From the NCBI RefSeq assembly GCF_003334765.1, contig NZ_QOWT01000017.1: a DNA stretch of 64,000 nt, one strand, 5' to 3'. Made by a program: the position numbers and the translations under genes. Below are positions 49,155-52,204 of the stretch, one piece after another. Under the pieces are notes generated by a model. The model was not told the DNA's origin. It searched no databases and saw only the letters and a program-made list of their open reading frames with translations. The first letter of the stretch is position 1, and the number at the start of each line of letters is the position of its first letter. The DNA is from Escherichia coli. Lineage in GTDB: Bacteria; Pseudomonadota; Gammaproteobacteria; Enterobacterales; Enterobacteriaceae.

Positions 49155-50810
49155 ATGGAATTTTCGTTTTCACCCAAACGTCTTGTTGTTGCTGTCGCCG
49201 CCGCTCTTCCTCTCATGGCCAGCGCAGCAGATACCCCGTCAACTGCCACCGCACGCAAAGGCTTTGCCGGATACGATCACCCAAACCAGTATCTGGTTAA
49301 ACCGGCGACCACTATTGCCGACAATATGATGCCAGTAATGCAGCATCCGGCGCAGGATAAAGAAACCCAGCAGAAGCTGGCAGAACTTGAGAAAAAAACC
49401 GGTAAGAAACCGAATGTGGTTGTTTTCTTGCTGGACGATGTGGGCTGGATGGACGTCGGTTTTAACGGTGGCGGCGTGGCGGTGGGTAACCCTACACCAG
49501 ATATCGACGCCGTTGCCAGCCAGGGGCTGATTTTAACTTCGGCGTATTCTCAACCAAGCTCTTCCCCAACCCGCGCCACCATTCTCACCGGACAATACTC
49601 CATCCACCACGGCATTCTGATGCCGCCAATGTACGGGCAACCGGGCGGGCTGCAAGGGTTAACCACGCTGCCGCAGTTGCTGCACGATCAGGGCTACGTC
49701 ACTCAGGCCATCGGAAAATGGCATATGGGGGAAAACAAAGAGTCGCAGCCGCAGAACGTTGGCTTTGATGATTTCCGTGGCTTTAACTCGGTGTCTGATA
49801 TGTACACCGAATGGCGCGACGTTCACGTCAATCCGGAAGTGGCCCTGAGTCCGGACCGTTCTGAATACATCAAGCAATTACCGTTCAGCAAAGATGACGT
49901 TCATGCGGTGCGCGGCGGCGAACAACAGGCCATTGCCGACATTACGCCGAAATATATGGAAGATCTGGATCAACGCTGGATGGACTATGGCGTTAAGTTC
50001 CTCGACAAGATGGCGAAGAGCGATAAACCATTCTTCCTCTACTACGGCACTCGTGGCTGCCACTTCGATAACTACCCAAATGCGAAATATGCGGGTAGCT
50101 CTCCGGCACGCACCTCGTATGGCGACTGCATGGTGGAGATGAACGATGTGTTCGCTAATCTGTATAAAACACTGGAGAAAAACGGTCAGCTTGATAACAC
50201 GCTGATCGTCTTTACCTCCGATAACGGACCGGAAGCCGAAGTACCGCCGCACGGACGCACCCCGTTCCGTGGTGCGAAAGGTTCGACCTGGGAAGGCGGC
50301 GTTCGCGTACCGACTTTCGTTTACTGGAAAGGGATGATCCAACCGCGTAAATCTGACGGTATTGTCGATCTGGCAGATCTCTTCCCTACCGCGCTGGATC
50401 TGGCAGGGCATCCTGGAGCGAAAGTGGCGAATTTAGTGCCGAAAACCACCTTTATCGATGGTGTGGACCAGACATCCTTCTTCCTGGGAACAAATGGTCA
50501 GTCTAACCGTAAGGCCGAGCACTACTTCCTCAACGGTAAACTCGCTGCTGTGCGTATGGATGAGTTCAAGTATCACGTCCTGATTCAGCAACCTTACGCT
50601 TATACCCAGAGCGGATATCAGGGTGGATTCACCGGCACAGTAATGCAAACGGCGGGATCGTCGGTGTTTAACCTCTACACCGATCCGCAGGAAAGCGACT
50701 CCATCGGCGTGCGCCATATTCCGATGGGTGTACCGCTACAGACCGAAATGCACGCGTATATGGAGATCCTGAAAAAATATCCACCACGCGCGCAGATTAA
50801 ATCTGACTAA
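49155..50810 (+). CDS. aslA: Arylsulfatase-like protein AslA
   Basis: 551-aa ORF with signal peptide and sulfatase signature [12 protein letters not shown]. Confidence 0.92.
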
Positions 50811-50837
50811 GCCGGCGCTATCGCTGAGATCTGCCTT

Positions 50838-50945
50838 TGCCGGATGCGATGCTGACGCATCTTATCCAGCCTACAGAACGCTGCAATTTATTGAATTTGC
50901 ACGATCATGTAGGCCGGATAAGGCGTTTACGCCGCATCCGGCAAT
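50838..50945. repeat. BIME/RIP-like element: two inverted REP units flanking a conserved central segment
   Basis: GCCGGATGCGATGCTGACGCATCTTATCCAGCCTAC ... CTGCAATTTATTGAAT ... TAGGCCGGATAAGGCGTTTACGCCGCATCCGGC between convergent aslA and aslB. Confidence 0.8.
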
Positions 50946-50968
50946 CAACCGCAGGCGGCCGCCGATTT

Positions 50969-52204
50969 CTACTTACTCACCACCAGCAAATGCGCATGCA
51001 TAATGTCGCTGGCCGGGCGACCGTGCGCCAGCAAATCAGCCATTGCTTTAAGATATGGCGGTAGATGGCGGAAATAACGCTGATACCCGGCACACAAATA
51101 ATTCAGTCCCGGTTTGCCGCTGGCATCGAGCATGAAGCGGTGTTTCGGGCAGCCTCCCCAGCACGCTTTTAACACGTTACAACTGCGACACTGCGCCGGT
51201 AACTGCTTAAATTTATCTTCACCAAACGCCTGCTGTTGCGGGGAATCGATCATTTCTGCAATTGTTTGCTGGTGCATATTCCCCAGCCGATATTGCGGAT
51301 AAACATAGTGATCACAGGCGTAAACGTCGCCGTTGTGCTCAACAATCACCGAGCGCCCACAGGTTGGCTGATGATGGCAAACCGCACCCGGCGCACCGAC
51401 AAAATTGGCAAACGCCCATTCGATATTCATCACGAAAATCTTGCCGACGTCGCGTTTGATCCAGTGGTCGAATATCGCCACCAGAAACTCACCGAACTCC
51501 TCGGGGCGCACCGACCATTCCGTTAGCTCACCCTGAATATCACCAGGCGCATGTAACTTAAGTCCATCGCGGGCAGTTGTTTCATCAGCCAGGCGCTCGA
51601 CCACCGGAATAAACTGGATGAATTCGACTCCCGCATCGCACAAAAAATCATATACCTGCAACGGTTGCTGCGCGCTGGTGCGATTAACGCAGACCAGCAC
51701 GTTATAGTCGACATGATGTTTTTGCAGGAGCGTCAGGGCACGCATCACCAGCTTATGCGTGGGTCTGCCACCTTTAGTCACGCGATATTGATTGTGGATC
51801 TCAGGCGGGCCATCCAGCGATAAACCAACAAGAAAATGATGCTCCGCGAGAAACGCGCACCATTCGTCATCCAGCAGCACGCCGTTAGTCTGGAAGCTGT
51901 TACTTATCTTCCTGCCAGCACCATATTTCGCCTGTAGCGCTACGGCACGGCGGTAAAACGCCAGCCCGAGTAGCGTTGGTTCGCCGCCCTGCCAGGTAAA
52001 AGCCACTTCGTTTTGCGGTTCGCTGGCAGCGATATAGTGACGGACATACGCTTCCAGCGTGTCATCGTCCATATGCGTGACTGGCTTTTCGCGGTAAAGG
52101 GATTGTTTTTCGAGATAAAAACAGTAGTCACAGTTCAGATTACAATCGGAACCGCTCGGTTTCGCCATCACATGAAAAGCACGCGTTGGAACCTGTTGCA
52201 GCAT
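50969..52204 (-). CDS. aslB: Radical SAM anaerobic sulfatase-maturating enzyme homologue
   Basis: 411 aa from MLQQVPTRAFHVMAKPSG; CX3CX2C motif (CNLNCDYC) and C-terminal Cys-rich SPASM-like region; track ORF extended 10 codons. Confidence 0.9.
   Translation of the reverse strand: MLQQVPTRAFHVMAKPSGSDCNLNCDYCFYLEKQSLYREKPVTHMDDDTLEAYVRHYIAASEPQNEVAFTWQGGEPTLLGLAFYRRAVALQAKYGAGRKISNSFQTNGVLLDDEWCAFLAEHHFLVGLSLDGPPEIHNQYRVTKGGRPTHKLVMRALTLLQKHHVDYNVLVCVNRTSAQQPLQVYDFLCDAGVEFIQFIPVVERLADETTARDGLKLHAPGDIQGELTEWSVRPEEFGEFLVAIFDHWIKRDVGKIFVMNIEWAFANFVGAPGAVCHHQPTCGRSVIVEHNGDVYACDHYVYPQYRLGNMHQQTIAEMIDSPQQQAFGEDKFKQLPAQCRSCNVLKACWGGCPKHRFMLDASGKPGLNYLCAGYQRYFRHLPPYLKAMADLLAHGRPASDIMHAHLLVVSK

Follow-up and report, generated by a model that had tools for sequence, protein, structure and literature searches.

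The neighbouring, convergent genes aslA and aslB of Escherichia coli, carried on a 64,000-nt stretch of chromosome (contig NZ_QOWT01000017.1 of assembly GCF_003334765.1; hereafter the window), raise the question of whether a radical SAM enzyme matures the sulfatase encoded beside it. Ser-type sulfatases depend on a radical SAM maturase, and the formylglycine-generating enzyme (FGE) is unable to use Ser. Annotations continue to call the two genes ‘putative’, and aslA is routinely scored as an invasion/virulence marker without a known substrate or proof of activity. An earlier look at this DNA, made from the letters and translations alone (the sequence-only reading), had left it undecided whether AslB acts on AslA. 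We consider it probable, at roughly 0.72, that AslA is an S1 sulfatase matured at Ser136 by its cognate AslB before Sec export, with the two genes under separate control. What we establish here are the features of the sequence, the families to which the two proteins belong, the alignment of their residues, the conserved pairing of the genes and their distribution in the population; the comparative results support the cognate pairing and raise our confidence in it, short of proof.

AslA matches the Pfam Sulfatase family (PF00884) over residues 86–418 (E = 1.1e-71). A PDB search with AslA returned 73 sulfatase matches, and the closest solved structure was PsFucS1 (7AJ0; E = 3e-101 over residues 52–544). 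At residues 136–140 AslA carries S-S-P-T-R, in which the sequence-only reading had seen Ser rather than Cys at the formylglycine position and had proposed alignment to characterised sulfatases as the check. In the HMMER alignment, S136 (codon TCT) stands opposite the catalytic Cys of PsFucS1, the calcium-coordinating Cys111 (PMC8484680), and it is also opposite residue 69, the catalytic Cys, of human arylsulfatase A (ARSA). Among 120 AslA homologues of 60–100% identity, aligned with MAFFT, the same column is occupied by Cys 84 times and by Ser 34 times; the surrounding AYSQP[ST]-x-SPTRAT is near-invariant, and position 136 alone toggles. The signature (C/S)-x-(P/A)-x-R, together with the L-T-G context that follows it, is found at this active-site position. 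All three alignments, each independent of the others, point to S136 as the predicted formylglycine position and settle it, and the Ser read from the translation is borne out. SSPAR at residues 315–319 was considered as a second signature and rejected, being off the nucleophile column and opposite G-A-S-P-A-A of PsFucS1, with no Arg.

The rest of the active site is equally well kept. Of the 121 sequences in the alignment, 118–120 conserve D94, R140, K188, H190, H303, N357 and K375; D95 and D356 come from direct reading of AslA, and the metal-site counterparts in PsFucS1 are D69, D70, D334 and N335. Divergent E. coli aslA alleles retain Ser at position 136. Read by eye, the N-terminus is a predicted Sec-type signal peptide that lacks a twin-arginine motif, and the N-termini of the homologues are similar. 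By sequence, AslA is a Ser-type S1 sulfatase.

AslB scores 518.3 bits against TIGR03942 (anaerobic sulfatase maturase), for which the curated cut-off is 349.45, and its score on this equivalog is far above that on every peptide-maturase model. It also matches the Pfam families Radical_SAM (PF04055, E = 9e-18) and SPASM (PF13186, E = 6e-12). The closest comparison is with the Clostridium perfringens anaerobic sulfatase-maturating enzyme (anSME) anSMEcpe (PDB 4K36–4K39), to which AslB aligns over residues 12–391 (4K36, E = 4e-64) with 11 of 11 aligned cluster cysteines retained. Three of these are the CX3CX2C motif (C21/C25/C28), and the other eight, C276, C282, C297, C339, C342, C348, C352 and C371, correspond to anSMEcpe C255, C261, C276, C317, C320, C326, C330 and C348; the Asp adjoining the third auxiliary Cys (D298, after C297) is conserved as well. 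These eight suit a SPASM domain that has two fully ligated auxiliary [4Fe-4S] clusters, and which SPASM residue ligates which auxiliary cluster has reportedly been assigned. The two enzymes differ in that the natural substrate of anSMEcpe is Cys-type, and in that AslB is longer, by about 20 residues around 203–225 and also at the C-terminus. The CX3CX2C motif and C-terminal Cys clusters noticed at the outset are thus confirmed by alignment, and on these profile and residue matches AslB belongs fully to the anaerobic sulfatase maturase family. An AAGGAG Shine-Dalgarno sequence lies 5' of its ATG.

We next compared the neighbourhoods of twelve AslA-family members, six Ser-type and six Cys-type, by targeted look-ups. 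A radical SAM/SPASM gene lies immediately adjacent to the sulfatase gene in five of the six other Ser-type relatives (six of seven counting the window), namely in Uliginosibacterium, a deltaproteobacterium, a second locus of an Enterobacter and two further genomes or metagenomes, while FGE adjoins none of the seven. The adjacent maturases are 57–68% identical to AslB, as against 41% for the E. coli paralogue YdeM, and the genes flanking the pairs differ, with four unrelated contexts. Because AslB orthologues adjoin Ser-type AslA relatives in differing flanks, the pair travels as a unit. One locus (L013) has two sulfatases, each with its own neighbouring maturase, and of the two maturases it is the more AslB-like (60% vs 42% identity) that sits next to the AslA orthologue. 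Four of the five paired loci are convergent as in E. coli, and the fifth is co-directional with overlapping genes. The sequence-only reading had described aslA and aslB as convergent rather than co-transcribed; this stands as a description of the layout but loses its force as a hint against coupling, since four of the six other Ser-type loci are also convergent and the arrangement therefore looks like the usual state of the module. On the Cys-type side, four of the six relatives have neither gene as a neighbour, one has FGE alone, and one has FGE together with a radical SAM gene. The association of Ser with an adjacent maturase gave a Fisher p of 0.029 with the window included and 0.08 (hand calculation) without it; we regard it as suggestive and the orthology argument as stronger.

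The same loci bear on the history of the nucleophile. The Ser codon at the formylglycine position is TCN in L002, L007, L008, L013 and the window, and AGT or AGC in L003 and L012; a single step separates either codon type from TGY, and the Ser-type members have Cys-type ones nested between them. This mixture of Ser codons and the nesting imply that the Cys/Ser switch occurred more than once in one tight family. The pattern, repeated nucleophile switching with Ser forms that have their own maturase gene alongside, may be of wider use. In Chitiniphilus (L005/L006), a Cys-type AslA relative has FGE and radical SAM/SPASM genes divergently upstream, a layout that hints at one sulfatase being matured both aerobically and anaerobically.

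Three known systems help to place the pair. The AtsA/AtsB system of Klebsiella pneumoniae, the prototype of Ser-type arylsulfatase and radical SAM maturase, is alike in setting a periplasmic Ser-type S1 sulfatase beside a three-cluster radical SAM enzyme, with cytoplasmic maturation expected before export. Its genes form an atsB-atsA operon, unlike the convergent and separately promoted aslA and aslB; the subfamily of AslA is that of PsFucS1 and different from AtsA's. PsFucS1 itself, a fucoidan-active sulfatase of Pseudoalteromonas (SulfAtlas S1_13), shares the calcium ligands and nucleophile position with AslA but has Cys in C-T-S-S-R where AslA has Ser in S-S-P-T-R. PsFucS1 acts on fucoidan oligosaccharides, but likeness alone is no ground for assuming this substrate in a gut enterobacterium. 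Within E. coli, ydeN-ydeM is a second pair of a putative Ser-type sulfatase (S-G-P-S-R) and an anSME-family enzyme; unlike aslA and aslB, its genes run in the same direction with 51 bp between them, and YdeN is 27% identical to AslA and YdeM 41% to AslB. The ydeN-ydeM locus (L011, K-12 1579633–1582524) adjoins the acid-resistance regulator gene ydeO.

Control of the two genes was approached through the DNA upstream of each. The sequence-only reading had placed aslA behind an AT-rich, possibly silenced promoter region. The composition agrees, with 32.5% G+C at 48731–49154 compared with 52.8% for the window and only 0.3% of 424-nt windows equally low, and Shimada 2014 (PMC3946193) assigns an H-NS mark to the aslA<>glmZ spacer and gives an aslA hexamer pair. 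That account had, however, overlooked the small RNA gene glmZ (SraJ; Rfam RF00083, 218 bits, gathering score 60), which together with its promoter occupies 48524–48766 of the hemY-aslA intergenic region, back to back with the predicted aslA promoter. We infer from the published prediction that TTAACA-18-TGTAAT is a functional aslA promoter. The sole other patch of the window that is equally AT-rich (down to 31% G+C) lies at ~31750–32800, which coordinate mapping places at K-12 yigF-yigG.

For aslB, Krin 2010 (PMC2984483) reported a 12.9-fold rise in an hns mutant, binding of RcsB/GadE to the aslB promoter, and slightly lower glutamate-dependent acid resistance on loss of aslB in an hns background (38.6% vs 51.7% survival). 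With the H-NS mark in the aslA spacer (Shimada 2014), this rise backs the silencing idea for both genes. Since ydeM lies near ydeO and aslB is under RcsB/GadE, both E. coli maturase loci seem to be linked to acid-stress regulation. We considered whether aslB might be transcribed together with the tRNA operon upstream of it and found this unlikely, as a 9-bp G+C-rich hairpin and T-run follow proM; this strong terminator separates the operon from aslB, which would thus need its own promoter in 52205–52323.

Presence of the two genes was scored as coverage of at least 80% in 5426 complete E. coli genomes. By this measure aslB is present in 5425 and aslA in 3694. The remaining ~32% (roughly 1,700 genomes, phylogroup B1/C-type) keep aslA nucleotides 1–139 only, having a single 1,579-bp deletion that removes aslA codons 47–551 and the left of two repeats in the aslA-aslB spacer (window 49294–50872); the remnant is annotated as an incomplete arylsulfatase. 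The deletion junction is identical in 10 of 10 low-coverage rows taken as an even-step sample and in 11 fetched loci (L016–L020, L023–L028), and its distribution agrees with the published absence of aslA from phylogroup B1 and some C lineages. In the literature aslA serves as a presence/absence ‘virulence’ marker, a use that this deletion underlies; its presence is reported to be associated with invasive lineages, and a K1 aslA mutant is cited as invasion-defective.

Most of the aslB alleles linked to the deletion are at least 99% identical. We found no relaxed selection on aslB after aslA loss, the synonymous to non-synonymous ratio being 10:11 among eight deletion-linked alleles and 11:10 in an aslA-positive control clade; with a young deletion haplotype and small samples, this polymorphism test has low power and retention of aslB is weak evidence. 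One deletion genome (L019, strain BKQ37E) has the substitution C348S in AslB, at a ligand of an auxiliary cluster. When divergent E. coli alleles are compared, the ratio of non-synonymous to synonymous substitution rates (dN/dS) is 0.027–0.033 for aslA and 0.05–0.12 for aslB, which is somewhat less constrained. Independent IS1, IS2, ISVsa5 and ISApl1 insertions break aslA or aslB in individual genomes (H1–H6, H13, H43).

In the scheme that we favour, AslA would be a Sec-exported, calcium-dependent S1 sulfatase whose nucleophile arises by oxidation of Ser136 to C-alpha-formylglycine. AslB would bind the still-unfolded AslA segment around Ser136 in the cytoplasm, cleave S-adenosylmethionine at the [4Fe-4S] cluster of its CX3CX2C motif and then take the C-beta hydrogen of Ser136. 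An electron would leave via the two auxiliary clusters of AslB to give the aldehyde, and export of AslA would come afterwards. With aslA and aslB on separate promoters, both in H-NS-influenced DNA, activity would be expected only in particular conditions, such as relief of H-NS or the GadE/RcsB acid-stress programme. The action of AslB on AslA, its compartment, the order of events and the expression conditions are here inferred from the features above and from the general mechanism of anSMEs, which make mostly backbone contacts with the peptide and are promiscuous for substrate (PMC7771511). If AslB does mature AslA, a search for the substrate of AslA becomes possible, and host sulfated glycans are obvious candidates.

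Several observations weigh against AslB acting on AslA. In the accessible literature we found no experiment on formylglycine or sulfatase activity in AslA, nor one on AslB with a Ser substrate. Overexpression of AslB makes human sulfatases produced in E. coli more active (PMC11215262, citing Almeciga-Diaz 2017), a point in favour of AslB as a maturase, but this published effect concerns the Cys type only. E. coli is stated to modify cysteine residues only (PMC6189696). One Ser-type relative (P0023) is without an adjacent maturase, and E. coli also has ydeN-ydeM, from which YdeM could substitute for AslB. Finally, aslB is an intact 411-codon open reading frame (ORF) in 11 of 11 sampled aslA-deletion genomes, which fits another use of AslB, or a recent deletion.

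These points feed different alternatives. Another enzyme might mature AslA, either YdeM or a ‘third’ E. coli system, leaving AslB redundant or irrelevant for AslA. The second Ser-type pair in K-12, the CX3CX2C motif of YdeM and the promiscuity of anSMEs would allow such a substitution, and a third maturation system has been inferred from aslB and ydeM deletion mutants. The third system, however, was inferred for Cys-type sulfatases, and the companions of Ser-type AslA orthologues in unrelated genomes are orthologues of AslB rather than YdeM-like paralogues, a preference seen even where a second maturase is at hand (L013). We therefore think it unlikely that AslA relies on another maturase. We are just as sceptical that the main job of AslB lies elsewhere, for example on a substrate linked to the acid-resistance regulon, with its place beside aslA a historical leftover. 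The near-universal presence of aslB, its intact ORF and constraint not visibly relaxed after aslA loss, its activation through RcsB/GadE and the acid-resistance phenotype all lean that way, and many peptide maturases are found among the radical SAM/SPASM relatives of AslB. Nevertheless, AslB scores as a sulfatase maturase far over any peptide-maturase model, the acid-resistance effect is small, the deletion haplotype is too young for retention of aslB to count for much, and a cluster ligand has already changed in one deletion genome. A milder proposal, that AslB has some AslA-independent function, maturing YdeN or modifying another, unrecognised substrate, is doubtful too but deserves somewhat more credit, given an ORF that is near-universal even with the aslA-deletion genomes included and control by RcsB/GadE rather than a link to aslA.

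Least probable by a wide measure, in our judgement, is that the pair is cryptic in K-12-type strains, with aslA silenced and AslA never matured naturally, inactive and heading for loss. The AT-rich, H-NS-marked DNA 5' of aslA, the insertion sequence (IS) elements that interrupt it in several genomes and its deletion in about a third would suit such a history. Strong purifying selection on aslA, the retention of S136 and the catalytic residues, the reported association with invasive lineages and the K1 mutant cited above all speak against it. Maturation of AslA by AslB remains the reading that best accommodates the orthologous pairing and the family membership of both proteins.

The 158-bp spacer between the two convergent genes had been described as RIP-like (repetitive IHF-binding palindromic), and this description holds. 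It contains two inverted repetitive extragenic palindromic (REP) sequences; the right-hand REP sequence occurs in five copies in the window against 0 expected, and the 41-nt centre of the element is a dispersed sequence, with a median of 13 sites per genome across the 5426 E. coli genomes. By these features the spacer is a genuine REP-L-REP element of RIP/BIME-1 (bacterial interspersed mosaic element) type. The other four REP copies are on the - strand at 7639–7669, 7738–7768, 26713–26743 and 34891–34921, two of them ~100 bp apart. An IHF-like site, ATTCAATAAATTG, matches the consensus WATCAANNNNTTR at 12 of 13 positions, as a sequence match only; no exact IHF consensus was found in the spacer, a one-mismatch site being the best. 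Nor did the spacer give an Rfam match to a structured RNA at the gathering threshold, and the terminator scan detected no canonical terminator in the window allele.

Spacer alleles were compared across L021, L022, L029–L036 and window 50811–50968. The full REP-L-REP form (157–167 bp) is found in K-12-like, O157 and some B2-type alleles, while others have a single REP in two forms (90 bp, collapsed; 101 bp, different) and the aslA-deletion allele has half of the element. As other E. coli alleles carry only a single REP or half, the RIP element is dispensable and not essential to the system. Non-K-12 alleles have a hairpin and T-run (GCGGCCACAAAATGGCCGC-TTTT) overlapping the aslB stop; the window allele has GGCGGCCGCCGATTT in place of that hairpin and T-run, plus AslB N410S and a different stop codon. 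Coordinates of the features of the locus are collected below.

Features of the aslA-aslB locus, in window coordinates
Feature	Position	Strand	Basis or remark
hemY	47280–48476	+	gene order of locus
glmZ small RNA gene, including terminator hairpin 48529–48558	48524–48730	-	Rfam RF00083, K-12 b4456, terminator scan; divergent from aslA
AT-rich spacer, glmZ +1 to aslA ATG	48731–49154		32.5% G+C
glmZ sigma-70 promoter (ATGTTA-N15-tggCATAAT)	48737–48766	-	read off sequence; agrees with motif in PMC3045617
predicted aslA promoter TTAACA-18-TGTAAT	48770–48799	+	hexamers of Shimada 2014 (PMC3946193) located in window
aslA, S1 formylglycine-dependent sulfatase (by sequence), 551 aa	49155–50810	+	ORF, Pfam Sulfatase, PDB 7AJ0, K-12 identity
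AslA predicted Sec-type signal peptide, residues 1–24, then AD	49155–49226	+	translation read by eye
interval absent in ~32% of complete E. coli genomes	49294–50872		aslA codon 47 into left REP
AslA sulfatase signature S136-S-P-T-R140	49560–49574	+	S136 (codon TCT), predicted formylglycine precursor
REP-L-REP element (RIP/BIME-1 type)	50837–50944		inverted repeats, REP copies, dispersed centre
left REP	~50837–50873		
AT-rich centre	50874–50907		
IHF-like site ATTCAATAAATTG	50884–50896	-	in REP-L-REP centre
right REP	~50908–50944		
aslB, anaerobic sulfatase maturase family radical SAM/SPASM, 411 aa from ATG	50969–52204	-	
AslB SPASM region: C276, C282, C297, C339, C342, C348, C352, C371 and D298	51092–51379	-	
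AslB radical SAM cluster motif C21-x3-C25-x2-C28	52121–52144	-	
strong intrinsic terminator after tRNA-Pro (proM)	52324–52345	-	terminator scan and sequence
proM-leuT-hisR-argX tRNA genes	52354–52787	-	thrP beyond

The window is E. coli chromosome in the orientation opposite to the K-12 MG1655 record, and over 7.5 kb two substitutions and one 18-nt insertion, in hemX, set it apart from MG1655. Its AslA and AslB show no difference from b3801 and b3800 of K-12 MG1655, and several other E. coli genomes match the locus at 100%. aslA-aslB is an already annotated E. coli pair, and the earlier observation, while accurate and rightly cautious, was ordinary. The hemX insertion, at 47205–47222, is (ACCTGC)x3 relative to MG1655, and hemX length varies between strains (1182 nt in MG1655, 1212 nt in strain BMH-17-0027).

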